Shown here: positions 9,105 to 33,999 of the stretch, piece after piece
How positions within the stretch are numbered: position 1 is the stretch's first letter
Layout of the letters: each line of letters begins with the position of its first letter
Assembly: GCA_045533785.1 (NCBI GenBank)
Contig: JAZSIL010000050.1
Coordinates: forward strand, 1 to 40,648
Source of the DNA: Bacilli bacterium
GTDB taxonomy: Bacteria; Bacillota_I; Bacilli_A; ML615J-28; CAG-313
DNA: 40,648 nucleotides
Reading direction: 5' to 3'
The notes under the pieces: generated by a model
The model's input: the letters and a program-made list of their open reading frames with translations, nothing else
Told to the model about the DNA's origin: nothing
Database searches by the model: none
Translations under genes and position numbers: made by a program

Positions 9105-9136
9105 AAAGGATGAGTTAATTATTCATCCTTTTTTTC
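9105..9136 (+). terminator. Terminator of the yneF-like gene, overlapping the 3' end of convergent plsY
   Basis: The stem aaaggatga (9105-9113) pairs with tcatccttt (9123-9131) and is followed by a T-run. The plsY stop codon (9119-9121) lies inside the hairpin loop. Confidence 0.55.
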
Positions 9137-9826
9137 ATCTGCTTCACTAACAAATGCAGGTTCATCCTTATCTTTGATAGCTTTAAAATTTATTTTAGAT
9201 TCGGTATGTTTTAAAATTCTTTTAAAATTTGGAATATGCTTAACGATTAAAAAGATACATATAAAGATTAAGATTAAACTAAAATATGTAATTGTTATAT
9301 CACCTATTGTAATATAGTAATTATCTTTAAAGAAGAAAGAAGTAATTAATACAGCAAGTGCTGTTAAGCAAGAAGAAAGAGATACAAATCTTGTTGTAAA
9401 TATGATAATTAAAAAAGTAATTAGTCCGACACCAAATGCAATCGGGTGGTAGAATAGAACAATTCCTGATGCGGTAGCCACTCCTTTTCCGCCTTTAAAT
9501 TTTGCAAAAATCGGAAACAAGTGTCCTAAAAATGCACATGCACCATAAGAAAGTGGATGAATAACGAAACTACCTAAGTCAAAGTTAAAGAAATTATGTT
9601 TCATTATAAATAAAATTAATCCACCTTTTAGTGCATCAAGCGCAAATACAAGTAAACCATATTTAAAACCTAATACTCTAAAAGCATTTGTTGCTCCCAT
9701 ATTTTTACTTCCATGTTCTCTAATATCAATACCTTTAACGATTTTTCCGATGATTAATGCCCAAGGTATTGATCCTAAGAGATATGAAATTACTAAAAAT
9801 ATTATTTGTATATATAATCCTGTCAT
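9119..9826 (-). CDS. plsY: Acyl-phosphate:glycerol-3-phosphate acyltransferase PlsY
   Basis: The 235-aa polytopic membrane protein carries GSKNMGATNAFRVLG and FKGGKGVAT motifs. It lies next to parE-parC as in B. subtilis (yneS). It has an acidic C-terminal tail (DEPAFVSEADEKKDE). Confidence 0.88.
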   Translation of the reverse strand: MTGLYIQIIFLVISYLLGSIPWALIIGKIVKGIDIREHGSKNMGATNAFRVLGFKYGLLVFALDALKGGLILFIMKHNFFNFDLGSFVIHPLSYGACAFLGHLFPIFAKFKGGKGVATASGIVLFYHPIAFGVGLITFLIIIFTTRFVSLSSCLTALAVLITSFFFKDNYYITIGDITITYFSLILIFICIFLIVKHIPNFKRILKHTESKINFKAIKDKDEPAFVSEADEKKDE

Positions 9827-10026
9827 GAAATCCTCTTTCTCATAATAGTACTTGAAATCTTTTTTTTATATTATATAATATTTGAATAAAAAAAAGTAGT
9901 AAATTGATTAAAAATTAATAATTTATTTTATGATATTTTCACCATTTTTTCGACGTTATTTTTTAATATTAAAAGTAATTTTATATGCATTTTATATAGG
10001 GTTTAGTTATATTTTTTTCTTTTTAC

Positions 10027-10055
10027 TTGCAAAAAAAAACAATTTGTGATACAAT
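10027..10055 (+). promoter_or_regulatory. Sigma-A type promoter for parE-parC
   Basis: TTGCAA (10027-10032) is followed by a 17-nt spacer and TGaTACAAT (10047-10055). Confidence 0.5.
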
Positions 10056-10088
10056 AAAATAAATTGATATTATTGGAGGTTTATATTT

Positions 10089-16938: not shown

Positions 16939-16991
16939 AAGTTAATAATTGCAAATTATAATAATATTAAACTTTAATGGAGGGTTTAAAT

Positions 16992-19900
16992 ATGTTAGAA
17001 CTTAAAAATATTGTCAAAGAATATCCTACGGGGAATAATACTTTAACAGCATTAAGAGAAATTAATATTGCTTTTAGAAAGTCTGAATTCGTAGCTATTC
17101 TTGGACAATCTGGATGTGGTAAAACTACATTACTTAATATTATTGGTGGCCTAGATAAATATACAGAAGGCGACTTAATAATTAATGGAATTTCAACTAA
17201 AGAATATAAAGATGCTAATTGGGATGCGTATCGTAATCATTCAATTGGTTTTGTATTCCAAAGCTACAATTTGATTCCTCATCAAAATGTACTTTCAAAT
17301 GTTGAATTAGCACTTACTTTATCAGGTGTATCTAAAACAGAAAGAAGAAATCGTGCAATTGAAGCGCTTACTAAAGTAGGACTTGCAGATCAAATTTATA
17401 AGAAACCTAATCAAATGTCTGGTGGTCAAATGCAGCGTGTTGCTATTGCAAGAGCTCTTGTTAATAATCCAGATATTTTACTTGCTGATGAACCTACTGG
17501 CGCGCTTGATTCAGAAACAAGTATTCAAATTATGGAAATCTTAAAAGAAGTTGCTAAAGATAAATTAGTAATTATGGTTACTCATAATCCTGAACTTGCA
17601 GATACTTATGCGAATCGTATTGTAAAATTATTAGATGGAAAAATTATTGATGATTCTAATCCTTATACTCCTATTTATAAAGAAACAGAAGTCACTAATA
17701 CTCCTAAAAAAATTGCTAAAAATAAATCAATGTCTTTATGGACAGCACTTACTTTATCTTTTAATAACTTACTTACTAAAAAAGGTAGAACAATTCTTAC
17801 AGCGATTGCAGGTAGTATTGGTATTATTGGTATTGCACTAATTTTGTCTATTTCTACGGGAGTAAATAATTATATTGATAATGTTCAACAAGAAACTTTA
17901 TCATCATTCCCAATTCAAATTGAAAAAGAATCTACAAACATAAGTGCCCTAATTAGTTCACTGATGGGAGTAGATGCTGAAGAACCAGCTGATGGAATTG
18001 CTAAAGAAGATCGTACTGCTGTTTATGGTAACCCAGTAATGTACAAGATGATGAAGGCAATGCTTAATGCTGAAGTGTCTACTAATAATCTTGAAAAGTT
18101 CAAAGTATATTTAGATGAACATAATGAAGAGTTAAGTGATTATACAACTGCTATTCAATATGGTTATAATGTTAAACTAAATATTTATTCAACCGATCCA
18201 AATGGTGAATATGCTAAAGCAGATTTTATGGATTTAATGAATGGTGTATTTGCTGGTGGTTCAATGTCGATGGGAATTTCTTCAATGATGGAATCTTCTG
18301 GTGGAATGACTGTATGGCAAGAGTTATTAACAGATCCTAAAACAGGTGAAATTAGTAATTTAATCGAAAGTCAATATGATTTAGTTCACGGAACTTGGCC
18401 TAAAGAAAAGAACGAAATTTTACTTGTTTTAAACGAGAGTAATGAGATTTCTGATGTAACTCTATACTCACTTGGATTAGTTGATAAACAAACAATGATC
18501 AACGCAACAATGGCGGCGATGATGGGCAAAGAAGATAATGGTTGGGATGCATATGAAGGTAAATCATGGAGTTATGAAGATATTTGTAACATTAGTTTAA
18601 AAATGATTTTACCAACTGATTATTATCAATTTGATGATACCACTAAATTATGGGTTGATATTTCTAGTAATCAAGCATTACTTAATTCAGTTATTAATAA
18701 AGGTTTAGATTTAAAAATTTCAGGTATTGTTAAACCAAGTGAAGATGCAACATCAGCATTCTTAAGTGGTTCTTTATGTTATACAAGTGCTTTAACAAAT
18801 TATTATATAGAAACTCTAAATAATACTGATATGATTAAACAACAACTAAGTAATGATGAGTATAATATCATTTCGGGACTTCCTTTTGTTTTAGAAGAAA
18901 CTGAAGAACTAACTAGAGAAGAACAAATTGCAACATTTAAAGAATATGTAAATGGTCTTACAAATAATGAAAAAGTAAAATTATATCAACAAATTTTATC
19001 TACGCCTAAAAAATCTTTTATTGATGCTACTATTGATGGTTTGTTAAAACAATATGAAAATAAAACAGCTGAAGACATTATTAATCATATTACAACACAA
19101 TATGCTACTGAACTTGGTTATAGTGAAGAATTAATAAAAGATATGTTAAGTGGTTATACAAAAGAAGAATTAATTGATATCATAATTGAAACTGTTGAGC
19201 AAATGATTATTAAACAACAAGAAGAAAAAGCACTAAAGATAATTGAGGAAATTTATGCTACACCATCCGTAGAAGAATTACAAACAATGAAAATGATGTT
19301 GTTATCAAATTTATATAAAGATGTTTCACAACTTCCAATTGAGCAACAAACGATTATGAAACAACAAATTAATTATAGTTTTGTTGCGAGCAATTGGTCA
19401 CAAAAAACAGGAATGTCAATTGAAACTGCTTTAGGTGTTTTAAAAACAATGAGCATTAATGAATTTAATGTTGCATTTGACAATGCCTTAAATGAGAATG
19501 CTGAAAAACTTTATGCACAATATAGTGGTATGAGTTCTAATGCTGATAAAGCTGCTAAAGTTGCAAAAGCATTTGATGAGTATTTAGCAAATTCTACTGA
19601 AGATGATTTTGTATATTTCTATTTGAATCATATGCCTGATAAAATTTCTGATAAAACAAAAGTAGATCTTTTAAAAGATTTAGGTTACAAACAAACTAAA
19701 GATCCAGATTTTATTAATATTTATCCAATTGATTTTGAAAATAAAGAAATAATTGCTAACATGATAACTGATTATAATAATGGTGTTGCTGAAGAAGATA
19801 AAATTGAATACACTGATATGGTTGCGATGTTAATGTCATCTGTTTCAGATATTATTACTGCTATTTCTGTTGTATTAATTTGTTTTGTATCAATTTCATT

Positions 19901-20264
19901 AGTTGTTTCTTCAATTATGATTGGAATTATTACTTATATTTCTGTTCTTGAAAGAACAAAAGAAATTGGTATTTTACGTGCTGTAGGTGCATCTAAGAAA
20001 GATGTATCGCGTGTATTTAATGCTGAAACAATGATCATTGGTTTATTTGCTGGTGTAATTGGTATTGGCGCTACAGTTCTTTTATGCTTCCCTATTAGTT
20101 GGATTGCACGTAGTGTTACAAATATTCAATCTTTAACAGCAGTTTTACCATGGTATGGATACTTATTAATTGTATTAAGTGTTGGACTTACTTTAATTGC
20201 AGGTATCTTCCCATCACGAATGGCTGCTAAAAAAGATCCTGTTGTAGCACTTAGAACAGAATAA
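16992..20264 (+). CDS. Fused ABC transporter ATP-binding protein / FtsX-family permease (MacB-like) with an oversized extracytoplasmic domain
   Basis: The ATPase has Walker A (GQSGCGKTT), the signature motif (MSGGQMQRVAIARAL) and Walker B (LLADEPTGALD). The C-terminus has an FtsX-type TM2-4 bundle (ERTKEIGILRAVGASKKDV). I place the start at 16992 (MLELKNIV) because GGAGGG (16979-16984) sits 7 nt upstream. The track start at 16977 would lie on top of that SD. Confidence 0.88.
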   Translation: MLELKNIVKEYPTGNNTLTALREINIAFRKSEFVAILGQSGCGKTTLLNIIGGLDKYTEGDLIINGISTKEYKDANWDAYRNHSIGFVFQSYNLIPHQNVLSNVELALTLSGVSKTERRNRAIEALTKVGLADQIYKKPNQMSGGQMQRVAIARALVNNPDILLADEPTGALDSETSIQIMEILKEVAKDKLVIMVTHNPELADTYANRIVKLLDGKIIDDSNPYTPIYKETEVTNTPKKIAKNKSMSLWTALTLSFNNLLTKKGRTILTAIAGSIGIIGIALILSISTGVNNYIDNVQQETLSSFPIQIEKESTNISALISSLMGVDAEEPADGIAKEDRTAVYGNPVMYKMMKAMLNAEVSTNNLEKFKVYLDEHNEELSDYTTAIQYGYNVKLNIYSTDPNGEYAKADFMDLMNGVFAGGSMSMGISSMMESSGGMTVWQELLTDPKTGEISNLIESQYDLVHGTWPKEKNEILLVLNESNEISDVTLYSLGLVDKQTMINATMAAMMGKEDNGWDAYEGKSWSYEDICNISLKMILPTDYYQFDDTTKLWVDISSNQALLNSVINKGLDLKISGIVKPSEDATSAFLSGSLCYTSALTNYYIETLNNTDMIKQQLSNDEYNIISGLPFVLEETEELTREEQIATFKEYVNGLTNNEKVKLYQQILSTPKKSFIDATIDGLLKQYENKTAEDIINHITTQYATELGYSEELIKDMLSGYTKEELIDIIIETVEQMIIKQQEEKALKIIEEIYATPSVEELQTMKMMLLSNLYKDVSQLPIEQQTIMKQQINYSFVASNWSQKTGMSIETALGVLKTMSINEFNVAFDNALNENAEKLYAQYSGMSSNADKAAKVAKAFDEYLANSTEDDFVYFYLNHMPDKISDKTKVDLLKDLGYKQTKDPDFINIYPIDFENKEIIANMITDYNNGVAEEDKIEYTDMVAMLMSSVSDIITAISVVLICFVSISLVVSSIMIGIITYISVLERTKEIGILRAVGASKKDVSRVFNAETMIIGLFAGVIGIGATVLLCFPISWIARSVTNIQSLTAVLPWYGYLLIVLSVGLTLIAGIFPSRMAAKKDPVVALRTE

Positions 20265-20337: not shown

Positions 20338-22410
20338 ATGTTTAAAATTGCTATTGACGGTCCAGCTGGTGCTGGGAAAAGTACTATTGCAAAAATTATT
20401 GCAAAAAAATTAAATATCGAATATATTGACACTGGAGCAATGTATCGTGCTGTAACCTTAAAAGCACTTCGATTAGGTGTTGATATGGAAGATGAAAACG
20501 CATATGAGTTTTTAAAGACAACTGTTCTTGATATTTGCAATGGTCGTTTTATTATGGATGGTGAAGATGTTTCAGAATCTATAAGAACTGTTGAAGTAAC
20601 AGAAAACGTTTCTACTCCATCTAAAATAGGTGTGGTTAGAGAATTTTTAGTTGAATATCAACGTAAAATAAGTGATTCTAAGAGTGTTATCATGGATGGA
20701 CGAGACATTGGTACTGTCGTACTTCCAAATGCAGAGCTTAAAATCTACTTAGTTGCATCCGTTGAATGTCGTGCTAAACGAAGAATGCTTGAGCGCGAAC
20801 AAAGTGGAATATTCAAGTCATTGGAAGAAACTATGCTTGAAATAGAAACTAGAGATCATAAAGATTCAACGCGAAAAATCAGTCCTCTAAAATGTGCTGA
20901 GGACGCTATCGTTGTCGATTCATCAAATATGACAATCGATGAGGTAGTTAGTGAAATTATTAAATTAGTGAATGAAAGGGGCTTAATTAAAATGAGCGAA
21001 AAAAACGAAAAGTACTATGTAGGACAAACTGTTACAGGTACAGTTACTGGTGTAAACAGTAATGCAATTTATTTAGAAATCGAAGAAGGAGTTAAGGCTG
21101 TAATCTATGCAAATGATTTACTAGAAGTACCAGGTAAATTATACTTAGAATACTCTGAAGGTGCAGAATATACTGCTCAAGTTAAGTCTATTGGTAAAGA
21201 TAAGAAAAACCCTAATGTTGTAGTTTTATATCTTTCTACAAAACTTGCTTATGAAAAAGAACAAGCTGAAGCAAAAGAAAAAGCATTACAAGAAAAAATT
21301 GCTGCATTCCATGCTATCAAAGAAGCTGATGAAGTAATTATGGCTAAAGTTTTAAGAACTACTAAAAATGGTGCTGAACTTACTTACAATAATACTAAAT
21401 TATTCTTATCTTATAAACATTCATCACTTAGTGAAGAAGCTTTAAAACAATTAAAAGGTGAAGAAATTCCTGTTATCGTATTATATGTTAATGAAGAACG
21501 TCATTTCATTTCTGTTAGCCAAATTGCTGCAGAAAAGAAACAAAAGAGACTTGCTAAAGAAGCAGCTTATGGTGCTTTAGAAGTTGGTCAAGTTGTTGAA
21601 GGTGAAGTTGTTTCAATTCTTGCTTATGGTGCAATTGTTAAACTAGGTTTAGTTAGTGGTTTATTACATGCATCTGAAATTGATCATTTCCCTGTTCGTG
21701 ACGTTAAGAAAGTTTTATCAGTAGGTAAAAAAGTTACTGTTAAAGTTATTAAGATTGAAGATGAAAAAATTGGTCTTTCAATGAAAGCTTTAACTACTCA
21801 TCCTTGGGAAGTATTGAAAGAAAAATATCATGTTGGTGATGTATTCGAAGGTACAGTTAAAAAGATTATTCCTGCTGGTTTAATTATTGAACTTACTCCT
21901 GAATATTCTGGTTTAATGCCTAAAATGGAATACTCTTGGTTAGTAAATGAAAAATATGATGGCGTTGTTAATGAAGGCGACAAAATTTTAGTTAAAGTAA
22001 TGAACATTGATGATAAGAAATTTAGAGTTAGTTTATCACATCGTGAAACTGTTGAAAATGCTTGGAATGGTATTAAACTTCGTAAAGGTGAACTTATTGA
22101 AGTTGAAGTTGTTCGTGATGTTGAACGCGGTGCTGAAGTAACTTATAAAACTGTTACTGGTTTCTTACCTGTTAATGAAGTTTCAAGTTCAAAACGTGTT
22201 ACAAATGTAACTGATGAATTTGCTGCTGGAAGTAAAGTTACTGCTATGGTATTAGAATGTGATCCAAATCGTGCAAAACTTGTTGTTTCTGTTAAAGCAG
22301 TTGAAGTTGCTAAAGAAAGAGAAACTTTTGATTCTTATATGAAAGAACAAGAACAAGAAAACACTGGAAGCACAATTGGTGATCTTCTTGGTGATGCATT
22401 AAAAAAATAA
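20338..22410 (+). CDS. cmk: Bifunctional cytidylate kinase / ribosomal protein S1 fusion
   Basis: This is a single 690-codon frame. The N-terminal ~218 aa is Cmk (IAIDGPAGAGKST, GRDIGTVV). The C-terminal ~470 aa contains four S1 (OB-fold) repeats of the form G..V.G.V..I...G....L. The order cmk - rpsA(ypfD) - der - gpsA matches B. subtilis. Confidence 0.88.
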   Translation: MFKIAIDGPAGAGKSTIAKIIAKKLNIEYIDTGAMYRAVTLKALRLGVDMEDENAYEFLKTTVLDICNGRFIMDGEDVSESIRTVEVTENVSTPSKIGVVREFLVEYQRKISDSKSVIMDGRDIGTVVLPNAELKIYLVASVECRAKRRMLEREQSGIFKSLEETMLEIETRDHKDSTRKISPLKCAEDAIVVDSSNMTIDEVVSEIIKLVNERGLIKMSEKNEKYYVGQTVTGTVTGVNSNAIYLEIEEGVKAVIYANDLLEVPGKLYLEYSEGAEYTAQVKSIGKDKKNPNVVVLYLSTKLAYEKEQAEAKEKALQEKIAAFHAIKEADEVIMAKVLRTTKNGAELTYNNTKLFLSYKHSSLSEEALKQLKGEEIPVIVLYVNEERHFISVSQIAAEKKQKRLAKEAAYGALEVGQVVEGEVVSILAYGAIVKLGLVSGLLHASEIDHFPVRDVKKVLSVGKKVTVKVIKIEDEKIGLSMKALTTHPWEVLKEKYHVGDVFEGTVKKIIPAGLIIELTPEYSGLMPKMEYSWLVNEKYDGVVNEGDKILVKVMNIDDKKFRVSLSHRETVENAWNGIKLRKGELIEVEVVRDVERGAEVTYKTVTGFLPVNEVSSSKRVTNVTDEFAAGSKVTAMVLECDPNRAKLVVSVKAVEVAKERETFDSYMKEQEQENTGSTIGDLLGDALKK

Positions 22411-23742: not shown

Positions 23743-24741
23743 ATGCAAGTTACTGTAATTGGTGGCGGAAGTTGGGGAAGTGCTCTAGCTAGGATTTTAG
23801 GTGATAATGGTCATGATGTTATAATTTATGATCGTACACTTGAAGTAGTAAATGAAATAAATCTATATCATACAAACAAAAGTAAATTACCTGTTGGAAC
23901 ACTACCACTTAATGTAAGCGCTACAGTTAATTTAGAAGAAGCTTTAAAAAATTCAAATGTTATTGTTCTTGCAGTACCTACTAAGGTCATTAGAAGTGTA
24001 TTACAGTCGATGAATAATTATTTAACACATAAATGTTTATTCGTTAACGCAAGTAAAGGTTTAGAACCAGATACTTTCTTAAGAGTATCAGAAATTGTAT
24101 ATCAAGAAATTAATAATGAATTAATAGATGATTTTGTTGCTTTAACTGGTCCTTCACATGCCGAAGAAGTAATTAATCAATTGCTTACAACTATTTGTGC
24201 TGTAAGTAATAACAAAAAAGCAGCAAAAGTTGTTCAATCATTATTTAATAATAGTAAATATTTTAGAGTCTATACAAGTTATGATTTAATAGGTGCTGAA
24301 CTTTGTGGTGCCTTAAAGAATATTTATGCAATAGCATCTGGCATGTTATTTGGTATTGGACTTGGAGATAATGCTAAAGCTGGACTAATTTCAAGGGCAC
24401 TTGTTGAGATGAGAAGATTTGTTATCTCTTATGGTGCAAATGAAGAAACAATTTATGGTTTAACTGGACTAGGTGATTTAGTAGTAACAACTACAAGTAA
24501 ACATTCAAGAAATTTCCAAGCAGGTTATCGCCTTGCAACAGGAAAAAATCTTGAAGAGACTATTGCTTCTATGACAATGGTCGTTGAAGGTGCAAGAACT
24601 GTTGTTGCTGCGTATCAATATGCTAGAGTTAATAATTTAGAAACACCAATCATTGATGCGGTATATGATGTTTTGTATAATAAAAAACCTGTTAAAACTG
24701 CAATAAATCAACTTATGAAAAGATCATTAAAAGATGAATAA
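23743..24741 (+). CDS. gpsA: NAD(P)H-dependent glycerol-3-phosphate dehydrogenase GpsA
   Basis: The 332-aa ORF has a Rossmann motif (GGGSWGSALA), plus GALKNIYAIA and GLGDL motifs. Its ATG abuts the der stop codon. Confidence 0.92.
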   Translation: MQVTVIGGGSWGSALARILGDNGHDVIIYDRTLEVVNEINLYHTNKSKLPVGTLPLNVSATVNLEEALKNSNVIVLAVPTKVIRSVLQSMNNYLTHKCLFVNASKGLEPDTFLRVSEIVYQEINNELIDDFVALTGPSHAEEVINQLLTTICAVSNNKKAAKVVQSLFNNSKYFRVYTSYDLIGAELCGALKNIYAIASGMLFGIGLGDNAKAGLISRALVEMRRFVISYGANEETIYGLTGLGDLVVTTTSKHSRNFQAGYRLATGKNLEETIASMTMVVEGARTVVAAYQYARVNNLETPIIDAVYDVLYNKKPVKTAINQLMKRSLKDE

Positions 24742-24773
24742 AGGGAAAATTTGAACTTTATTCATCTTTTTTT
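24731..24773 (+). terminator. Rho-independent terminator after gpsA
   Basis: A 13-bp stem, aagatgaataaag (24731-24743, which includes the gpsA stop codon), pairs with ctttattcatctt (24756-24768). A T-run extends to 24773. Confidence 0.75.
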
Positions 24774-24782
24774 ATCGTATTT

Positions 24783-24811
24783 TTGCAATATTTTTAAAAT
24801 AATGTTATAAT
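24783..24811 (+). promoter_or_regulatory. Sigma-A type promoter of cassette 1 (micro-ORF plus giant amidase protein)
   Basis: TTGCAA (24783-24788) is followed by a 17-nt spacer and TGtTATAAT (24803-24811). It lies about 33 nt upstream of the micro-ORF ATG. Confidence 0.6.
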
Positions 24812-24843
24812 AAATGAGTAATTTTTTTAAAGGAGAAAATATA

Positions 24844-24972
24844 ATGAATAAAAGCTATGAAACTCCTTCTATCGAAATTATTAACTATGAATCTGAAGTG
24901 CTAACTGCTGGTGGAAGCGTTGTAATCGACTTCCCTTGGGTAGAAGATGGCGAATCAGAATTCTTCGCATAG
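24844..24972 (+). CDS. Unannotated 42-aa acidic peptide (MNKSYETPSIEIINYESEVLTAGGSVVIDFPWVEDGESEFFA), paralog of 29280..29408; function unknown
   Basis: My own translation. The SD aAGGAGaa sits 8 nt before the ATG, and the stop TAG overlaps the SD of the next gene. An equal-length paralog shares 25/42 identical residues, and the conserved residues are encoded by different synonymous codons (gct ggt gga agc gtt gta atc versus gca ggt ggt agt gta gta ata, both AGGSVVI). Confidence 0.7.
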   Translation: MNKSYETPSIEIINYESEVLTAGGSVVIDFPWVEDGESEFFA

Positions 24973-24986
24973 GAGGAAATTAAATT

Positions 24987-27900
24987 ATGAAAAAAATAGT
25001 TTTAAGTTTATTAACTGTTTTCATGGTTCTATCATTAAGTGTAGTGCTTGTTAAAGCTGATGTTACAACTACCGTTTCATTAGAAGACGGTGTACAAATT
25101 AGAACTGATGGGAACAATGGTTTAAAATGGGTTGCAAATGTAGAAAACTACGCTGAAGGCAATGAATATGGTTTCTTATTTGCACAAGGTGATTTAGCTG
25201 AAGTTACAGTTGCATCAGAAGGTGTAGTTAAACAAGTTGTAGAAGGTGTTACTTTAGAAGAACCAGTTATGTCTGCTACAATGGTTAACTTCCCTAAGAA
25301 AGCTGCTAATCAAGATATTAGTGTTGTTGCATATGTTTATGATGGTGAAAATTATTCATATTCAAATGTAGTTGTTAGAAATCTTGCAGAAGTTGCAGTT
25401 TATGCTAAAAACACTATTGATGGTGATTTTGTAAATGCAGTTGCTGAATATGTAGGTGAAAATTATAAGAAAACATTTACCGATGCTCAAGGCTCATTAT
25501 ATTATGATAATGCATTATATGAAACTAACCATGTAGTTCTTGCTGAAGAATTTATTGATGACTGGAATACTTTATTTTCAACTTCGTTAGATGCTGCAAC
25601 AACTTTTACTGGTGGATCTAGTTCTACATGGTATAAGTCTGCTAAAACAAGTTCTCAAACATCTTGGGCAAATTCTAAGTTAAAAGAGTTTTTCCAAAAT
25701 GAAGCTATGTATGCAAAATGGGGTTGGTTATTAAATTATATAATTAATGAATTATCTAATGGTACCGGTCATGGTTTTGCAAAATCACAAGCAGAAGCAA
25801 TAATTAATAATGTTGAAGATACAGCAAATTGGTATTACAGTGGTCATTTATGTTCATTTGTCATGAGTTTTATGACAGGTGAATATCAAAGTTCTGGTTG
25901 GGGAAGTTATAACTTTGGTAATTATCCAGAAAAATTAGCATTAGTAAGAAATTATAATAATACTATTTATGCAAATTATAAATACTCAACTTTAGTTGAA
26001 AAAAATGCAATTGTTAATTTACCAGTCCCAAATAATAAAACTGGTTATTCATCTAATTGGGTCTATAATTCAGTTGAATATGCAGATGGTAGCGAATTTT
26101 CTTTAGATGCTAATACTAATTATTTTCTAACTAGTAATTATAAAGCTATTAATTATACTGTATCATTCTATGATGGTGCTACTAATTTAACAAATTTCGC
26201 ATTAACTTATAATATTGAATCTAGTGATTTAATTTTACCTGAATATGAAAAGTCAGGTTATGTATTCAAAGGATGGTACACAACCTCTACATTTGAAGAG
26301 GGTACTGAAATTGATATAATATATGCGGGTTCTTGTGAAGATGTAGTTGTTTATGCAAAATTAGAAGAAACATCTAATGTTAGTGTTAATGTTACATTAA
26401 ATCCAAATGGTGGATGTTGGGATGCTGCAACAACTTTAGAAAATGCTACTATTTTAAAACAAGCAACTTTAACTAGATATTTGACTAGAGCATCAAGTAC
26501 GGGGTATGATGCTAGTTTACATACCGGTACTTATTCATATTGGTATCATTTACTACTAAAAGAAACTTCAATTAGTGGTATTTATGAAATTGTTTCTAAG
26601 GGTTATGGAGCAACTTCAGTTACTGATTATAATCTTTCTATTATATGGCATGGTTCATTGACTGATGCTACATCTAAAACTGCATTAACTGCACTTTATA
26701 ATGATGCAAGTACTATTGGAAAATATGTTATTCTTGAAAATGTTCCTGCTGCATCTTCATCATCATGTTCGATTACTGTTAATGTCATTGATGCTAGTGA
26801 ATTAACTAAATCTTTAACTAAAACTTTAATTGAAAAAGAAGAATTACCTACACCAATTCATGCAAATAGTGATTATAGTTTTGGTGGTTGGAAATCAAGT
26901 GTTGATGGCTCAATTGTAACTGAATTCCCTGCTTACTCATCTAATCCTGGTGATATTACTTATACTGCTCAGTGGGAATCAAATTTAAAAGATGTTACTG
27001 TTAACTTTGATACTAATGGTGGAGCATTTGTAAATTATGAGTCTGTTGATGCTGCGATAGCTGATTTCCTAAAAGATTATAATACTGCAAGAAATAAATC
27101 TCATACTCCTGAAACATTCTATGCATTAGGATCATGGGGAGAAATTTCTGACGCTTCATTATTCTTATATAATTCAAATTATAAAGAAAAATGGACTTGG
27201 CTTGTAAATTATATTGCTGGTGTAGCCGGTGGTGCAAATAAAAATGCTTTTACAAACTTCTATAATTACTCATCACAATCTGAATTAAATGCCGCTAATG
27301 GAAATTATATTTACTCGATAGCCTATGAACTTCGTGGTTGGGTTGCTCAAGCAAAGTATTCTCAAAATGCAAACTTCATCACTGCTGATTATTCTAGTGC
27401 TACAGTTCAAGCAGCGTTTAATTCTGCTAATACACTACCTTTAAGCTATGTTTATACTGATCCTTGTACTTTACCTAAACCATTTAAACAAGGTTATACA
27501 TTTAAAGGTTGGTATACAAATGAATCATTAACTGGTGATGCTGTTACTAGTTATCCTGGTTATTATACTAATATAGGTGAAATTACTTATTATGCTAAGT
27601 GGTCAAGTTCAATTATTGTTACATACGATACTGATCCATTTACTGAAGTTGGTAATTCTATTCAATTAAATGCTAAAATTTTAGGTGAATTAATTGGTAA
27701 TTTTGTATGGGAAAGTAAAAATACAAGTGTTGCAACAGTTGATCAAAATGGTCTAGTTACAGGTGTTAAAGAAGGAACTGCTACTATTTATGTTTATGAT
27801 TCTGGTGATCCTCATGTAAATTTAAGCATTGAAATTTCTGTTGTTTCTGCAGGCCTTAGTGATCTTTTTAGTATTATTTCTGATGCTCATAATAATACAG

Positions 27901-29021
27901 TATTTAATCGCGATAATTTAGGTATTGGTGCGGGAACTCCAGTTTATTATACAAATGTTTATGGAAGTGTTAGTAAAATTTTATATAACCAACCATTAAA
28001 TATTGATAAAACTTATGCTACTACTGATGTTGATGACTTTGACACATTAAGATCATTAGAATTTATTACAGTTCACTATACTGGTAATATGAGTGTAGGT
28101 GCTGATGCTAGAGCAAATGCTCAATATTTTGCATCCGAAAATAATACTTCAATTCATTATACAACTGGAAATGATGGTGTTTATCAAGCTTTAACTCATG
28201 ATAAAGGAGCATGGCATGCAGGAGATGGTGCTTCAGTTAATCAAGTAGGATATTTTACTTGGAATAAAACAGGTGTTAAATATGATGGTGGTGATTTATT
28301 AAAAATCAAGTGGACTGCATCAGATGACTTTTATTTTGAAATTAATGGTAAAAAGACTTCAATAAAATTACCTTCAACATGGAATTATAACAGTAGAAAT
28401 ACAGATCACGTATTTAATTCAGATGGAACAATTAGTTCAAAATCAAGTTATGCATATAGTTTCTCCAATCGTTCTCCAGAATCATTCTTTAATGATTGGG
28501 GATTTCCAGTAAAAGTTGAAAATGGTGAATATTATATGGGTACTACTTGGTGGTGCTATAGTCAAGTTCATGAAGGCCGTATTTGTGGATCTGGTGGAAA
28601 CCTTAATTCAATTGGTATTGAATCTTGTGTTGATAAGGGTTCGGATTTATGGTATACTTGGCAATTAACTGCTAAACTAGTTGCTAAACTTTGTTATGAA
28701 AATAATCTTGGTTTTGAAAGAATTAGACCACATCATGCTTATACAGCTAAAGATTGTCCTCAACCATTATTAGAAAATAATATGGAAATTTGGTGGGAAT
28801 TTATGGATCTTGTCAAGTATGAATATGAATTATTAACAAAGTTTAGTGATTATAATATTACATTTGTATCGAATAATAACGAATTTATTTCAAATAATGG
28901 TAGAGTAATTAAAGTTCCAGAAGATGACACAGTAGTTAGTTATACTGTTACTTTAACACATAAAACTACTGGAGCTGCTAATTCTGTAACTTACTTTGCT
29001 ACTATACCAGGTTCTAAATAA
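24987..29021 (+). CDS. Giant secreted multidomain cell-surface protein with a C-terminal N-acetylmuramoyl-L-alanine amidase (Amidase_2) domain
   Basis: The 1344-aa protein has a Sec signal peptide (..VVLVKA/DVT). It has Listeria-Bacteroides type repeats (GYVFKGWYT.., FGGWKSSVDGS.., GYTFKGWYTNE..) and a Big_2-like Ig domain (VGNSIQLNAKI..VWESKNTSVATVDQNGLVTGVKEGTATIYV). Amidase_2 motifs are ITVHYTG, GAWHAGDG, NSIGIESC and RPHHAYTAKDCPQP. Confidence 0.85.
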   Translation: MKKIVLSLLTVFMVLSLSVVLVKADVTTTVSLEDGVQIRTDGNNGLKWVANVENYAEGNEYGFLFAQGDLAEVTVASEGVVKQVVEGVTLEEPVMSATMVNFPKKAANQDISVVAYVYDGENYSYSNVVVRNLAEVAVYAKNTIDGDFVNAVAEYVGENYKKTFTDAQGSLYYDNALYETNHVVLAEEFIDDWNTLFSTSLDAATTFTGGSSSTWYKSAKTSSQTSWANSKLKEFFQNEAMYAKWGWLLNYIINELSNGTGHGFAKSQAEAIINNVEDTANWYYSGHLCSFVMSFMTGEYQSSGWGSYNFGNYPEKLALVRNYNNTIYANYKYSTLVEKNAIVNLPVPNNKTGYSSNWVYNSVEYADGSEFSLDANTNYFLTSNYKAINYTVSFYDGATNLTNFALTYNIESSDLILPEYEKSGYVFKGWYTTSTFEEGTEIDIIYAGSCEDVVVYAKLEETSNVSVNVTLNPNGGCWDAATTLENATILKQATLTRYLTRASSTGYDASLHTGTYSYWYHLLLKETSISGIYEIVSKGYGATSVTDYNLSIIWHGSLTDATSKTALTALYNDASTIGKYVILENVPAASSSSCSITVNVIDASELTKSLTKTLIEKEELPTPIHANSDYSFGGWKSSVDGSIVTEFPAYSSNPGDITYTAQWESNLKDVTVNFDTNGGAFVNYESVDAAIADFLKDYNTARNKSHTPETFYALGSWGEISDASLFLYNSNYKEKWTWLVNYIAGVAGGANKNAFTNFYNYSSQSELNAANGNYIYSIAYELRGWVAQAKYSQNANFITADYSSATVQAAFNSANTLPLSYVYTDPCTLPKPFKQGYTFKGWYTNESLTGDAVTSYPGYYTNIGEITYYAKWSSSIIVTYDTDPFTEVGNSIQLNAKILGELIGNFVWESKNTSVATVDQNGLVTGVKEGTATIYVYDSGDPHVNLSIEISVVSAGLSDLFSIISDAHNNTVFNRDNLGIGAGTPVYYTNVYGSVSKILYNQPLNIDKTYATTDVDDFDTLRSLEFITVHYTGNMSVGADARANAQYFASENNTSIHYTTGNDGVYQALTHDKGAWHAGDGASVNQVGYFTWNKTGVKYDGGDLLKIKWTASDDFYFEINGKKTSIKLPSTWNYNSRNTDHVFNSDGTISSKSSYAYSFSNRSPESFFNDWGFPVKVENGEYYMGTTWWCYSQVHEGRICGSGGNLNSIGIESCVDKGSDLWYTWQLTAKLVAKLCYENNLGFERIRPHHAYTAKDCPQPLLENNMEIWWEFMDLVKYEYELLTKFSDYNITFVSNNNEFISNNGRVIKVPEDDTVVSYTVTLTHKTTGAANSVTYFATIPGSK

Positions 29022-29066
29022 AATATTTAATTTGGCTTAAAATGTTTTATCTTAGATTATAAAATT

Positions 29067-29105
29067 AAAAAAGGAATGATACTTGATATTTCATTCCTTT
29101 TTTTT
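29067..29105 (+). terminator. Rho-independent terminator after giant protein A
   Basis: The stem aaaaaaggaatga (29067-29079) pairs with tcattcctttttt (29091-29103), and a T-run continues beyond it. Confidence 0.75.
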
Positions 29106-29239
29106 ATAAAATTATAAATAAAATACAAAAAAAATTTGATAATAAAAGAAAATATTATTTAATTTATCTCTTATTAAATGTTGAAAAAACTAAAATGTAA
29201 TATTTATTAAGTAAAAAAAAAACAATTTTTATAAAAATA

Positions 29240-29248
29240 TGATATAAT
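29240..29248 (+). promoter_or_regulatory. Extended -10 element (TGaTATAAT) of cassette 2
   Basis: tgatataat lies at 29240-29248, 31 nt upstream of the second micro-ORF ATG. There is no good -35 hexamer at 17-nt spacing. Confidence 0.45.
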
Positions 29249-29279
29249 ATATAAGTAATTAATTTATAAGGAGAATATT

Positions 29280-29408
29280 ATGAATAAAAATTATGATGTT
29301 CCTTCTATTAAAATTATAAGTTTTGATTCGGAAATTCAAAGTGCAGGTGGTAGTGTAGTAATACAATTTCCATGGGCTGATGAAAATGAATCGGATTTTT
29401 TTAATTAG
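29280..29408 (+). CDS. Unannotated 42-aa acidic peptide (MNKNYDVPSIKIISFDSEIQSAGGSVVIQFPWADENESDFFN), paralog of 24844..24972; function unknown
   Basis: My own translation. The SD AGGAG (29269-29273) sits 6 nt before the ATG. The stop TAG (29406-29408) overlaps AGGAGG, the SD of the downstream GTG-initiated gene. It has the same length and layout as cassette 1. Confidence 0.7.
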   Translation: MNKNYDVPSIKIISFDSEIQSAGGSVVIQFPWADENESDFFN

Positions 29409-29420
29409 GAGGTATTTAAA

Positions 29421-32400
29421 GTGAAAAAAGTATTATTAAGTTTATTAGTGGTTTTAACTTTTATTTTTGTTGGCTTTTCATTAATTAAAGCTGATACACA
29501 AACTACTGTAGAGTTAATTGATGGTGTCCAAATTAGAACTGATAATTTAAATGGTTTAAAATGGGTAGCAAATGTTAAAAATCATGATAATAATAATGTT
29601 TATGGCTTTTTACTTGCACAAGGTGAAGTTTTAAACTTAACTATTGAGAATAAAGATGCTATGAATCAAGTTGTAGAAGGTGTTACTACAGAAGAACCTG
29701 TTATGAGTGTTACAATGGTTAATTTTCCAAAATCTGCAGCAACTACTGATATTAGTGTAAGAGCTTATGTAAAAGTTGGTAATAGTTATTATTATTCAAC
29801 TAATACAGTAGTTAGAAATCTTGCTGAAGTTGCGCTTTCTGCATATGGAACTACTGAAGGTAGTTTTGTAAATAATATTGTTAATTATGTTGATGAAAAC
29901 TACAAATCGCAATATGTTGGATTTGATGGTCTTATCAGCTTTGCTTCTGCAAAATATGAAGTTAATCCTGCAAATTTAGAAAAAGAATTTGTAAAAGATT
30001 GGAATGCTAAATTCGGTACTACCTGGACAGAATTTAATTATAATACATTTAATACTAGTGCAATTGCTGGTAATAAACCTTTAACAGCTGATACTGATAA
30101 AGATTGTTCTGGTACTAATGCTTATGCTTTCTTTAAAACTGATGCTGTTACTAGTGCTAAATGGGGTTGGCTATTACAATTTTTCCTTGCAGAAACTGCC
30201 ACAGGTGTTCACCCTAAATTACAAATGAATGCTGTAATTTCTGATACTGGTACTTATACTTTATTAAGTAATGGTAAAGAATATAGTGATTTATATCAAT
30301 TTAAACACCTATCTAGAAGTTTATATAATTTCTTTAAAGCTGGTACTGAGGATATTAATGATTATCCATCAGTTGGTTTTACAGATTCACATCTATTTGC
30401 TAAAATTAGTGAATATAATAACAAAATTATCGCATTTTCCCCTGAATTCGTTAAGGTAAATGAAGAAGTAGTTTTACCTGAAATAGAAAAAGATGGTTAT
30501 GTATTTGAAGGTTATTCTGTAGATGAATCAGAACCTTTAAAAGTTATTACTATTTCTAGCGAAAATAAATTAATTGTTCCACAATATTCTGCTGTACAAT
30601 ATACTGCCAAATTTATGCTTGGTTCAACTGAGTTAAAAGAATTAGAATTAGCTTATAATATTGAAGAAGATATTTATTTACCTACTCCAATTATTGAAGG
30701 GTATGATTTCTTAGGATGGTATGATAATGCTGAATTCACTGGAAATCCAATTGAAATGATCGAAACTGGTTCATATGGTGATAAAGTATTCTATGCAAAA
30801 ACAGAAACTCAAACTTATGTAAATGTTAATGTTACTTTTGATGCAAATGGTGGTAGTTTTAATCCAACTACAACTAATATTCCAGGAGATTTTGAAATTG
30901 AAGTAGAAAAAGCTGTAAACTATGCTGCTGATATTACATATTTAGCTCCATCTACTACTGCATCTACGCTTCGTTACCAATATAAGGTTATTTTAAATTA
31001 TAATGCTACACTAGGCTTATTTGAAGTAATCGCAGTAGATGCTGCCACTAAGACTTTAACTGAAGCAGCAGCTGGTGCTACTTGGACTCATGCTCTTGCT
31101 AACTCAGCAGAAAATATTACAACTAATTTCGTTGTTGGTCAATATGTTTATTTAAATACTACAGCTTTAGCAAGTGGTAAACAAGTTGCTCAAGTCTATA
31201 ATAGTTTAGATTCACTAACAAAATATTCTACAGTTATGAAAAAACCTGAAACTCTTCCAGTTCCTACTAATGGATTAGAAGAATTTGCTGGTTGGAAATC
31301 AAGTGTTGATGGAAGTATTATAAAAGAATATCCTGGTTATATGTCAAATCCTGGTGATATAACTTATACTGCTCAATGGGGCGATATCGTTAATGAAGAA
31401 ATTAATGCTGAAGTTACATTTGATTATAATGGTGCAATTTCAGAAGAAGTATATAAAGCTAATGGAACTAATTTATCAAGTTTAGTTTTAAGCGTTTATA
31501 ATGATAATGCTAATTATGCAACGTTAATGAAAGAAAATATCTTCATTTATAAGGCTGATAATGTTTATAATTCAAATTATTCATATAGATATTGTATCGC
31601 TAAAAATGCTTCAACTGGTTTATATGAAGTAACTCATTTCATTGATAAACTAGCTGCTGATTCAACTATTCCTGCTGGAACAGAATATGTTATTGTTATC
31701 TCAACTGGTTATACTGGTTCATATACTAGCAACTTTGATAGATCAAAAGTTGCAGTAGGTAATGTTGTATTATTTGATAAAGACTTTACAACTGCTTCGT
31801 CATCTAATTTAGTAACTGCTACATTCTATAGTAATAGTGTATCTAATTATAATGTTGTTGCAACTGTTACTGAAAGTTCAGTACTTCCAACTCCTATTAG
31901 AGTTGATTATAAATTTGGTGGCTGGTATGATACTAATGATAATTTAATTGATTCTGTTGAAGACTTACGTGGTATTCCTGCCATTACACTTGTTGCTAAA
32001 TGGAATTCAACTTCTAATATTAATGCTGAAGTCACATTTGATTATAATGGTGGTATAACAGAAGAACTTATTAAGACTAAGGGTTCTCCTGCTGGATCAC
32101 TTATTATTAGTAATTACAATGGTAATTTCTGGAATTTATATGCAGATAATACATTTATTTATCCTGTTGGTACATCATTTAATCCTCAAGGTGCAAAACG
32201 TATTTATATTGCACAAAATTCATATAATGGATTATATTATGTTTTAGGTACTCAAACTAGTGGTGTAAGCGCAAAACCTGAAGGTACTGATTATATTATT
32301 ACTGTAAGTGATTCATATTCAGGTACTTATGATGATAATTTTGATGTTTCTAAACTTGCAAAAGGTGATATCGTATTCTTTAACAAATCATTTACTGCTG

Positions 32401-33953
32401 CTTCATCTACTAATTTAGTTACTTTATCATTCTATAAAGGAACTATTGCTAATGATTCTATTACTCAAACTATTAATAGTGATGTTAAGTTTGTAACTCC
32501 TGTAAAAGATGGTTATAAATTTGCTGGTTGGTATGATGCAAATGATAATTTATATTCAACATATAAAGATTTAGCTGGCGTTGAAACTATTACTTTAACA
32601 GCTAAATATGTATTTGATGATACCCTAGTTGGATCATTTAAAGATAATTCATGGGTTGAAGTAGGTAGTTCTATTAAATTAAATTACAAATTTGTTTCAG
32701 GAAGTAATATCGCAGTTTCTTGGAAATCTAACAATCCTAGTATTGCAGAAGTAGATGCTGAAGGTAACGTTACTGGTAATGCTGTTGGTCTTGCTGAAAT
32801 CGTAGTTTATGCAAATGATGCACCTAGTATTTCATTTATATATTATGTAACTGTAGTTGCTGATGGTGCTAGTTCAATGCTTCAAGTATTACTAGATAGT
32901 AATAATGAAAGTATCTTTATTAGAAATGATTTAGGTATTGGTGCTGGTACTCCTGCATATTATTATGATGCTATTGGTAGTGTTTCTAATTTATTATTCA
33001 CTACATATACTGAACATAAAAATTTCTATCTATCTAGTCCTTCTAATAAATCAACTTTAACTGGTTCAGGTACTGGTGGTGTTGACTTTGTTTGTGTTCA
33101 CTATGCTGCTGACATGCCTTATTCTGCTACATATTCTAAAAAAGGTGGTTCAAATTTAGCATCTTATAATAAGACTTGTAATACAAATGGTACAGGTGCT
33201 TCATGGCATTATAGTGTAGGTAATGACGGTGTTTGGTATTGTCAAAATACTGCTTATGGTGCATGGCATGCAGGGACATCTAAGACAATGACTTGGACTT
33301 CAACTGGTCTTACAACTGCTAAACTTGGCACTAATGTTTATACAACAGATGTTACACTAGGGTCTGATGGATATTTCTATATAAAAGGTATAAAAACTTC
33401 AGTTAAAAATACAACTGGTTATACTAGATTAAATTCATTAGGTTTAGGTGTTAAATTAAGTGGATCTACTTGGTATTTAGGTGGACATTACTATAATTCA
33501 TCTTATAAATATATTTCTTCATTAGGTGGTAACTGTAACTCTATTGGTATGGAAACATCTGTTAGAGAAGGTTCAGACCTTTGGTTAACATGGCAATATA
33601 CTGCTCAACTTTGTGCTAAGTTATTAATTCAATTTAATTTACCAATTCAACGTCTTGTAGGTCATCATTTCTTCTCAGGAAAAGATTGTCCTCAACCATT
33701 ATTATTAAATGAAAATGAAATTTGGCATGTATTTAGAGAAATGGTTATTCAACAAATGGCTTACTTCAAGGCATATGGTTCAGCTGGTGCTGCTCCTACT
33801 TTAAGTTCTACAAGTAAATATATTGATTCTAAAGGTAGAGTAACAAGTTTACCAACTTATTCAACTTGTCAAACTTATACACTATCTTATAAAGATGGAT
33901 CTTCAACTAAGACTGTTACATTATCTACAATTATTCCTGGTACTATTGCTTAA
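29421..33953 (+). CDS. Giant secreted multidomain cell-surface protein with a C-terminal Amidase_2 domain (paralog of 24987..29021)
   Basis: The 1510-aa ORF has a GTG start 8 nt after AGGAGG and a signal peptide (..FSLIKA/DTQ). Its N-terminal domain is about 65% identical, by eye, to protein A. It has Listeria-Bacteroides type repeats, a Big_2-like domain (VGSSIKLNYKF..WKSNNPSIAEVDAEGNVTGNAVGLAEIVV) and Amidase_2 motifs (VCVHYAAD, GAWHAGTS, NSIGMETS, GHHFFSGKDCPQP). Confidence 0.85.
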   Translation: MKKVLLSLLVVLTFIFVGFSLIKADTQTTVELIDGVQIRTDNLNGLKWVANVKNHDNNNVYGFLLAQGEVLNLTIENKDAMNQVVEGVTTEEPVMSVTMVNFPKSAATTDISVRAYVKVGNSYYYSTNTVVRNLAEVALSAYGTTEGSFVNNIVNYVDENYKSQYVGFDGLISFASAKYEVNPANLEKEFVKDWNAKFGTTWTEFNYNTFNTSAIAGNKPLTADTDKDCSGTNAYAFFKTDAVTSAKWGWLLQFFLAETATGVHPKLQMNAVISDTGTYTLLSNGKEYSDLYQFKHLSRSLYNFFKAGTEDINDYPSVGFTDSHLFAKISEYNNKIIAFSPEFVKVNEEVVLPEIEKDGYVFEGYSVDESEPLKVITISSENKLIVPQYSAVQYTAKFMLGSTELKELELAYNIEEDIYLPTPIIEGYDFLGWYDNAEFTGNPIEMIETGSYGDKVFYAKTETQTYVNVNVTFDANGGSFNPTTTNIPGDFEIEVEKAVNYAADITYLAPSTTASTLRYQYKVILNYNATLGLFEVIAVDAATKTLTEAAAGATWTHALANSAENITTNFVVGQYVYLNTTALASGKQVAQVYNSLDSLTKYSTVMKKPETLPVPTNGLEEFAGWKSSVDGSIIKEYPGYMSNPGDITYTAQWGDIVNEEINAEVTFDYNGAISEEVYKANGTNLSSLVLSVYNDNANYATLMKENIFIYKADNVYNSNYSYRYCIAKNASTGLYEVTHFIDKLAADSTIPAGTEYVIVISTGYTGSYTSNFDRSKVAVGNVVLFDKDFTTASSSNLVTATFYSNSVSNYNVVATVTESSVLPTPIRVDYKFGGWYDTNDNLIDSVEDLRGIPAITLVAKWNSTSNINAEVTFDYNGGITEELIKTKGSPAGSLIISNYNGNFWNLYADNTFIYPVGTSFNPQGAKRIYIAQNSYNGLYYVLGTQTSGVSAKPEGTDYIITVSDSYSGTYDDNFDVSKLAKGDIVFFNKSFTAASSTNLVTLSFYKGTIANDSITQTINSDVKFVTPVKDGYKFAGWYDANDNLYSTYKDLAGVETITLTAKYVFDDTLVGSFKDNSWVEVGSSIKLNYKFVSGSNIAVSWKSNNPSIAEVDAEGNVTGNAVGLAEIVVYANDAPSISFIYYVTVVADGASSMLQVLLDSNNESIFIRNDLGIGAGTPAYYYDAIGSVSNLLFTTYTEHKNFYLSSPSNKSTLTGSGTGGVDFVCVHYAADMPYSATYSKKGGSNLASYNKTCNTNGTGASWHYSVGNDGVWYCQNTAYGAWHAGTSKTMTWTSTGLTTAKLGTNVYTTDVTLGSDGYFYIKGIKTSVKNTTGYTRLNSLGLGVKLSGSTWYLGGHYYNSSYKYISSLGGNCNSIGMETSVREGSDLWLTWQYTAQLCAKLLIQFNLPIQRLVGHHFFSGKDCPQPLLLNENEIWHVFREMVIQQMAYFKAYGSAGAAPTLSSTSKYIDSKGRVTSLPTYSTCQTYTLSYKDGSSTKTVTLSTIIPGTIA
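31401..32636 (+). repeat. In-frame tandem duplication of a 618-nt (206-aa) module inside giant protein B
   Basis: Both units start attaatgctgaagt.acatttgattataatggtg (INAEVTFDYNG), at 31401 and 32019. Both end in a Y-K-F-[GA]-G-W-Y-D repeat. They have diverged substantially at the protein level. Confidence 0.8.
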
Positions 33954-33966: not shown

Positions 33967-33999
33967 AAGACTCCAAACATAAGTTTGGAGTCTTGTTTT
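33967..33999 (+). terminator. Terminator after giant protein B
   Basis: A perfect 12-bp stem, aagactccaaac (33967-33978) pairing with gtttggagtctt (33983-33994), has a 4-nt loop. The U-tract (gtttta) is short and interrupted. Confidence 0.65.

Follow-up and report, generated by a model that had tools for sequence, protein, structure and literature searches.

A family of acidic micro-proteins encoded directly upstream of giant secreted proteins and predicted to be translationally coupled to them

We analysed a 40,648-nucleotide (nt) contig of a Bacilli bacterium (JAZSIL010000050.1, assembly GCA_045533785.1; its whole length is the window below), in which two 42-codon open reading frames (micro-ORFs) each stand directly upstream of a gene for a giant secreted protein. 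Sequence conservation gives good support to the view that the micro-ORFs are genuine small-protein genes. In class A, the layout of both window copies, the micro-ORF stop codon TAG overlaps the GGAGG Shine–Dalgarno (SD) sequence of the large gene, and a long-range RNA helix predicts translational coupling of the micro-ORF and the giant gene; this step, too, is well supported. Unlike the coding and coupling steps, the role of the peptide is something that we infer: with a probability of roughly 0.4, it would be a trans-acting partner, made together with the precursor of the large protein, that acts in the cytoplasm, as an escort or anti-folding factor of the nascent N terminus. Neither the peptide family nor its strict pairing with a single family of secreted proteins appears to have been described so far; in a limited literature search we found no description of the peptides or of small ORFs upstream of Listeria–Bacteroides-repeat proteins.

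Coding evidence and the micro-protein family

Both micro-ORFs were proposed in a first-pass annotation of the window, and their translations match its peptides exactly over 42 codons each (coordinates in Table 1). Its description of their signals also held: an AGGAG SD sequence lies 6–8 nt before each ATG (8 nt in copy 1, 6 nt in copy 2), and the distance to the giant gene, given as 12–14 nt, measures 14 nt for copy 1 and 12 nt for copy 2. Copy 1 has nine Asp or Glu residues and one Lys, the same count as before, and the isoelectric point is 4.05 for each of the two peptides. Their grand average of hydropathy is -0.08 and -0.30, and neither acidic sequence contains a hydrophobic stretch, in agreement with the proposed absence of a signal peptide or transmembrane (TM) helix. 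The word 'unannotated' needs qualifying, as both peptides are already in a large predicted-protein collection, as nameless entries that derive from this same 40,648-bp contig. A six-frame scan of the window with a profile hidden Markov model (HMM) returned the two known copies and no others.

Realignment of the two micro-peptides gave the same 25 identical residues in 42 as the annotation had counted and agrees with its treating the pair as paralogues; the synonymous differences within identical residues, put there at 11, came to 13 on recount. The copies differ at 40 nt, with 6, 9 and 25 differences at codon positions 1, 2 and 3. By the Nei–Gojobori method the proportions of synonymous (pS) and non-synonymous (pN) differences are 0.73 and 0.22, with a ratio of the corresponding rates (dN/dS) of ~0.09, clearly under 1 as expected, and codons 13–39 alone, which lie outside the helix arms described below, give a pS of 0.79 and a pN of 0.23. 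Several conserved residues are written with more than one codon: P8 with CCT or CCA, I12 with ATT or ATC, S25 with AGT or AGC, P31 with CCA, CCT or CCG, and F41 with TTC or TTT. Homologous ORFs free of frameshifts and stops, which the annotation had called for in relatives, were found: the six-frame HMM scan covered the window and the first 20 related loci, and 30 of 30 micro-ORF copies ran without interruption. The third-position bias, the excess of pS over pN and the intact homologues sustain its claim of a conserved coding ORF under selection at the peptide level.

A profile built on the two window peptides collected 23 clusters, with proteins of 41–44 amino acids (aa), and a wider profile 53 clusters, with a family length of 40–45 aa. 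When 1.84 billion representatives were scanned exhaustively with HMMER, 18 matched, including members 37–45% identical to a window peptide, and a scan of metagenome contigs added only four further micro-ORF loci. The carriers are metagenome-assembled genomes (MAGs) from animal guts, labelled Erysipelotrichaceae bacterium or Bacilli bacterium. Apart from one mis-started 64-aa call, no family member has a name or a Pfam domain. Searches with the peptides of Pfam, NCBIfam (even at E ≤ 10), PHROGs and PDB sequences found nothing significant, which bears out the earlier failure to place them in any named family, and Rfam gave no match to window positions 24600–29600.

Positions M1, Y5, P8, I12, P31 and W32 are invariant in the family, and S25 and F41 nearly so. 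The part that persists across the widest divergence is the N-terminal motif K-x-Y-E-x-P-x-I-E-I-x-x-F/Y. PW and FF are kept in most members, with a distance to the stop that varies by 1–4 residues and a motif spacing that varies as well; insertions and deletions occur in the loop and tail, and the C-terminal extension is A, E, EE or DEEV. A divergent variant at locus L025 has lost PW and FFE and kept the N-terminal motif: this 37-aa small ORF (MKKIYEKPIVEIEKFTEEESITTNSGLVNFGDIPGDE, L025:172-285) lies 1 nt 5′ of a distant (24% identical) protein with the N-terminal domain of the secreted partners described below. Because it keeps the N-terminal motif only, the family is probably wider than the HMM searches show. 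We found no conserved export or cleavage motif in the micro-peptide family, so the idea of an exported signalling peptide is without support.

Surveys of small ORFs in gut microbiomes have yielded conserved small-protein families without a known function. The present family resembles them in being shorter than 50 aa, almost confined to metagenomes and MAGs, nameless, and detectable by conservation and synteny; it differs in its unusually strict context, its multiple copies per genome and the fusion of each copy to the translation start of a gene from one surface-protein family.

Secreted partners, operon layout and the predicted helix

A partner with one and the same N-terminal domain (N-domain) lies directly 3′ of the micro-ORF in 17 of 17 contexts with readable downstream DNA and in all four metagenome loci. 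The pairing was found again in both contexts (2/2) reached from distant N-domain proteins; all contexts pooled, a secreted partner stands next to the micro-ORF in 23 of 23. Common to all partners are a signal peptide and an immunoglobulin (Ig)-like N-domain of ~115 aa, with the motifs GVQIRTDGNNGLKW, YGFLFAQG, TMVNFPK, DISVxAYV and RNLAEVA. Partners in L009, L010, L012, L013 and L014 (777–1632 aa) carry Flg_new (Listeria–Bacteroides) repeats only and no Amidase_2, one partner has a GH18 domain, and the partners in class B, the second layout described below, are short (365–498 aa) and consist of a signal peptide and 3–4 tandem N-domain copies, with nothing else. The recurrence anticipated in Erysipelotrichia-like genomes is seen upstream of large secreted proteins with Listeria–Bacteroides repeats, whereas the amidase is not constant. 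An inhibitor of the downstream autolysin, one of the roles first suggested, is unlikely, because the constant feature of the partners is the signal peptide plus N-domain and not the amidase; we rejected an inhibitor or partner of the amidase, as many of the secreted proteins carry none.

AlphaFold2 (AF2) models the N-domain as an Ig-like β-sandwich (predicted template modelling score 0.74). Foldseek returned generic Ig-like matches only (template modelling score ≤0.51, E ≥0.005) and no specific relative, and N-domain searches of Pfam and PDB sequences gave no match; we flag this unclassified Ig-like family for annotation. Its most conserved motif is GVQIRTDGNNG (mature residues 11–21; the N-domain of giant protein 1 is at window 25059–25436), which holds the sole internal segment with a predicted local distance difference test (pLDDT) score below 50 in the AF2 model (mature residues 12–19), the rest of the sandwich being confident; this segment may need a ligand or partner. 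We rejected the notion that the micro-peptide is a fragment or mimic of the N-domain: MAFFT put FPW on the domain's NFPK motif, and hhalign gave the match a probability of 0.2%.

The MAG SIG222 has at least six micro-ORF copies: four of its contigs carry five of the window type, and a further copy is of the overlapping type. In its loci L007–L011 the micro-peptides are 80–98% identical and the partner N-domains 61–77% (98% and 69% for L007/L008), whereas in the window genome the micro-peptides are 60% and the partner N-domains 65% identical. The comparison suggests gene conversion or homogenisation of a promoter/micro-ORF module in some genomes. The partner in L011 is split into two ORFs, 8135–9100 (321 aa) and 9101–13291 (1396 aa), next to an intact micro-ORF; a frameshift or pseudogene, or a sequencing error, is possible.

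A promoter-like site stands in front of every micro-ORF copy, with TG-extended -10 boxes 12–30 nt 5′ of the SD sequence; from this site and the short leader, the micro-ORF is therefore the first cistron. The copies have a strong SD sequence and an A-rich start, followed by 40–45 codons, and no terminator was found between micro-ORF and large gene. Stop codon and SD sequence are fused as TAGGAGG at 24970–24976 in copy 1 and at 29406–29412 in copy 2. Where the downstream gene of a class A copy could be read (11 copies), TAG overlaps a GGAG(G/T) SD sequence, and the gap to the gene is 8–15 nt. In class B the two ORFs overlap, the ATG of the downstream gene preceding the micro-ORF stop by 20 nt, and the codons for W32 and G33 supply the SD sequence GGGGA. 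We rejected a fusion to the giant gene product through read-through or frameshifting: of the copies checked, four, including window copy 2, are in frame with the downstream gene and the others are not, which is about the chance expectation.

In class A RNA, CCUUCUAUCGAA (codons 8–11) is predicted to pair over a long range with UUCG-C-AUAGGAGG, forming a 12-bp helix. It is present in the minimum free energy (MFE) folds of both window copies (z-scores -3.1 and -2.0), and RNAalifold arrives at it independently, both from 12 and from 14 sequences. Helix cells are paired in 95.8% of cases, compared with 39–55% in controls with a slid partner strand. P8 is encoded by CCT in 12 of 12 sequences of the class A alignment and S9 by TCT in 10 of 12; the five P8 CCA codons of the family all fall outside this alignment, and CCA is found in the overlapping class. 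We masked the 5′ arm to mimic a translating ribosome: in partition-function folds, the probability that the SD sequence of the large gene is unpaired is 0.00–0.26 natively and 0.17–0.60 with the arm masked. Copy 2 offers a single instance of possible compensation, in which E11K (GAA to AAA) accompanies UUC to UUU in F41. The annotation's account of the variation as purely synonymous thus holds in part only: some of it is consistent with helix compensation, and the selection on the peptide stands.

A weaker second hairpin pairs AUGAAAA at the start of the large gene with UUUUCAU in signal-peptide codons 11–13. The signal peptide (MKKIVLSLLTVFMVLSLSVVLVKA, window 24987–25058; equivalents in L007, L010, L013 and L014) exceeds both the mature N-domain and the micro-peptide in conservation: identity between W1 and L014 is 92% for the signal peptide, 63% for the N-domain and 55% for the micro-peptide. 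Over its first ~17 codons the nucleotide sequence hardly differs between genomes, and the AUGAAAA/UUUUCAU hairpin may be the reason why these codons are nearly frozen; gene conversion or a sequence-specific role of the signal peptide is also possible.

RNA unfolding and re-initiation are established models of translational coupling, and by analogy the layout is the classical arrangement for coupling by one or both of them (PMC12548453). As in E. coli rpmI–rplT and phage MS2 coat–lysis (reviewed in PMC12548453), a short upstream cistron lies on the same mRNA, the distance between stop and start is tiny or the ORFs overlap, and a structure covering the ribosome-binding site (RBS) could be opened by a ribosome on the upstream ORF, a structure that is here predicted from sequence alone. 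The upstream cistron in the present case, however, encodes a 42-codon acidic peptide of a new family where those systems have a ribosomal or phage protein, the 5′ arm lies ~100 nt upstream (codons 8–11), and the downstream genes encode giant secreted proteins. A leader small ORF coupled to its neighbour is of a known general kind, and the peptide family appears to be new.

Candidate functions of the peptide

On the reading that we favour, the micro-ORF would be the first cistron of an operon for a lineage-specific secreted surface protein. In class A, pairing of codons 8–11 with the stop codon and SD sequence would keep the RBS of the giant gene closed until a ribosome translates the micro-ORF. 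That ribosome would terminate on top of the SD sequence of the giant gene, and the large protein would be made only when the micro-protein is made, and roughly as often. The peptide would act in the cytoplasm on the nascent signal peptide and Ig-like domain of the downstream protein, in an escort or anti-folding role that keeps the precursor export-competent. It appears to comprise two hydrophobic segments prone to form β-strands (YExPxIEI.. and S-V-V-I-x-F/Y-P-W) and an acidic aromatic tail. We favour a role in trans because the N-terminal motif is the most widely conserved part and is kept in L025, because the loop, tail and C-terminal extension tolerate insertions and deletions, and because the hydrophobic segments look like β-strands and AF2 shows no autonomous fold. 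The AF2 model of the micro-peptide alone has no secondary structure (pLDDT 69) and is uninformative on the target; this would be expected of a peptide that folds on a partner.

Several observations weigh against this reading. Covariation in the helix is weak, because its arms are nearly invariant: double changes are confined to two pairs, each of them in window copy 2, and 88 of 500 shuffles score equally. Masking the 5′ arm leaves the SD sequence still partly paired. Two N-domain genes have no micro-ORF of their own, one as the second gene of a micro-ORF-led operon (L008:3480-7847) and the other at L018:5762-7894. The mature partner is extracellular and the micro-peptide has no export signal; any contact would therefore have to occur before or during export. 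Finally, the contrast in SIG222 between peptides at 80–98% and N-domains at 61–77% identity is better fitted by a common target or by gene conversion than by paralogue-specific binding.

It is possible, though doubtful, that the peptides form a new class of leader micro-protein for secreted giants, either escorting the nascent N terminus or acting within the ribosome as a state sensor that gates the RBS of the partner. If this is true, the biogenesis of surface proteins in Gram-positive gut bacteria would be under a further, so far unrecognised layer of control, and either an export escort or a nascent-chain sensor would mean a new control of the production of very large cell-surface proteins. 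As a coupling device only, the system would still be a clean natural case of long-range RBS occlusion relieved by a leader cistron. Proteins shorter than 50 aa are routinely overlooked, and the context of only a few suggests any experiment; the present family is tractable, with a strict partner (putative autolysins, a GH18 enzyme), several copies per genome and a clear predicted RNA switch.

The main rival, which we consider unlikely, is a cis-acting nascent regulatory peptide. Such a peptide would slow or arrest its own translation on some signal and so tune translation of the secreted protein, the stalled ribosome either holding the anti-SD helix open or sitting on the SD sequence (compare SecM–secA, MifM–yidC2 and ErmCL–ermC). 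The combination of an upstream ORF (uORF) with an SD-sequestering helix matches known arrest-peptide switches (PMC10987492), and the likeness to SecM, MifM, VemP and ApcA/ApdA/ApdP extends to a link with export and to selection on the peptide (PMC10987492, PMC7897499). A cis role would also suit a peptide without a fold of its own in AF2 and in a different compartment from its mature partner, and the homogenisation of peptides within a genome fits a common target such as the ribosome. Monitoring substrates, however, are encoded by a uORF upstream of sec or yidC genes, carry an N-terminal signal or TM segment, and have a C-terminal arrest sequence at fixed spacing (PMC10987492). The micro-peptides have no N-terminal signal or TM segment, and the gene downstream encodes a secreted substrate (Flg_new/Amidase_2 or N-domain repeats) and not Sec, YidC or other export machinery. 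Their conserved core is N-terminal: over the widest divergence it is the N-terminal and not the C-terminal half that is most conserved. The distance from PW/FF to the stop varies by 1–4 residues and the spacing between motifs varies too, which is hard to reconcile with a precise geometry in the tunnel or peptidyl transferase centre, and the peptides contain no known stalling motif.

A trans-acting small protein might instead have a common target elsewhere (a membrane protease, secretion or cell-envelope machinery, or a regulator) and be linked to its neighbour via co-duplication and co-expression only, which we regard as rather improbable. A shared target would account for peptides that are far more alike within one genome than the partner N-domains (98% against 69% for L007/L008) and for N-domain genes without their own micro-ORF, and a candidate is at hand in a small Peptidase_M50 gene that separates class B from class A pairs near rplQ in three genomes. 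In the window, however, divergence is as great between the peptides as between their partners (60% and 65% identity), and no M50 or other candidate target gene is linked to the locus. Moreover, the micro-ORF adjoins its partner in all 23 contexts, with stop and SD sequence fused or the ORFs overlapping, and this speaks for a function bound up with the neighbour. The M50 genes (site-2-protease-like, with HExxH and PLDG, ~211–228 aa) are found at L015/L016:9272-9907, L018:11606-12292 and L019:10613-11257, 3′ of rpoA–rplQ, flanked by a micro-ORF/N-domain pair of class B on one side and a class A pair on the other; at L018:10258-11533 an insertion of RVT_1 (group II intron-like) ORFs separates the M50 gene from the class B pair.

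It is highly improbable that the micro-ORFs encode precursors of a pheromone or of a ribosomally synthesized and post-translationally modified peptide (RiPP), in which MKKxYExPxIEI would be the leader for a maturase or transporter encoded elsewhere and the C-terminal half the core. The Y-x-x-P-x-hydrophobic motif is presumably similar to the YxxPxL-type leaders of lasso peptides, which we take as a lead only. Size (~40–45 aa), the Met-Lys/Asn-Lys-x-Tyr-x-x-Pro-x-Ile/Leu N terminus, the acidic C-terminal part, the conserved N-terminal and more variable C-terminal half, and the multiple scattered gene copies all fit lasso or other RiPP precursors. Against this, the peptides match no precursor family in NCBIfam or Pfam, even at E ≤ 10, and have neither a conserved Asp or Glu acceptor nor a cleavage motif. 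A lasso precursor would have Asp or Glu at core position 7–9 and Thr at -2; position 29, which is D in copy 1, is D, E, N, Q, P, G or Y in the family, and position 21 is T, M, L or S. A double-glycine leader fares no better, as GG is found in close relatives only, with LA-A, NLA, LTS or VDA elsewhere, and Cys is absent. In the window and the listed called genes of related loci we found no cyclase, leader peptidase or other maturase, RiPP recognition element, radical-SAM or C39-transporter gene; the only ABC transporter gene nearby belongs to the syntenic locus L006 and encodes an ABC_tran+FtsX protein, not a C39-peptidase transporter, and the window ORF at 16977–20264 lay outside the scan. Constant, tight coupling to a secreted Ig-like protein is not a feature of RiPPs. 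We therefore rejected membership of a lasso or other RiPP family, for which there is no model match, acceptor, cleavage site or nearby maturase.

The reading in which the micro-ORF is a coupling spacer or no gene at all, with only the RNA helix or the act of translation mattering, is essentially excluded because of the codon statistics (6/9/25 position bias and a dN/dS of ~0.1 between the window copies), even though the helix is there, the synonymous sites of its 5′ arm are nearly frozen in class A and pS is slightly lower in the arms than in mid-ORF (0.41 versus 0.48). An RNA helix within the ORF, which has no Rfam match, does not explain the conservation of the peptide. The peptide itself must matter, because its residues stay invariant while their codons vary and because class B and the distant L026 retain the same residues despite their different RNA layout.

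Feature coordinates and other observations

Table 1. Features of the two micro-ORF operons in the window
Feature	Positions	Strand	Basis or remark
Promoter-like site, operon 1: TTGCAA, 17-nt spacer, TATAAT with upstream TG (TGTTATAAT, 24803-24811)	24783..24811	+	10/12 match
SD sequence AGGAG of micro-ORF 1, 8 nt 5′ of ATG	24831..24835	+	
Micro-ORF 1, 42 codons, MNKSYETPSIEIINYESEVLTAGGSVVIDFPWVEDGESEFFA	24844..24972	+	Translation, homology and codon statistics
Helix 5′ arm, copy 1: codons 8–11, CCTTCTATCGAA, anti-SD	24865..24876	+	MFE folds, RNAalifold
Helix 3′ arm, copy 1: TTCG-C-ATAGGAGG; codon 41, stop TAG (24970-24972), GGAGG SD sequence	24964..24976	+	
Giant secreted protein 1, 1344 aa: signal peptide, Ig-like N-domain (~residues 25–140), Flg_new, Big_2, Amidase_2	24987..29021	+	
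TG-extended -10 box, operon 2: TGATATAAT	29240..29248	+	
SD sequence AGGAG of micro-ORF 2, 6 nt 5′ of ATG	29269..29273	+	
Micro-ORF 2, 42 codons, MNKNYDVPSIKIISFDSEIQSAGGSVVIQFPWADENESDFFN	29280..29408	+	Translation, homology and codon statistics
Helix 5′ arm, copy 2: CCTTCTATTAAA	29301..29312	+	
Helix 3′ arm, copy 2: codon 41, stop TAG (29406-29408), GAGG of giant gene 2 SD sequence	29400..29412	+	
Giant secreted protein 2, 1510 aa, GTG start: signal peptide, same N-domain, Flg_new, Big_2, Amidase_2	29421..33953	+	
Terminator-like 12-bp palindromic hairpin just 3′ of giant gene 2	33967..33994	.	Probable end of unit

Two metagenome sequences join parts of the system in other ways. P0031 (62 aa) consists of the first 23 residues of a micro-peptide and the last ~39 residues of an amidase-type giant protein; it arose by loss of the entire giant gene or is an artefact of assembly. 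In P0079 (175 aa), there is a WXG100-like (PF06013) N terminus joined to an N-domain, probably because the contig is chimeric.

Elsewhere in the window, a single 690-aa ORF (20338–22410) fuses Cmk (cytidylate kinase) to a ribosomal protein S1 with four S1 domains, and the same Cmk/S1 fusion is present in the syntenic locus L006. Two genes of the sigma-70 family (regions 1.2–4; 351–1250 and 4594–5760) flank glyQS-like and dnaG genes, and the second of them (388 aa) looks like the primary sigma factor.

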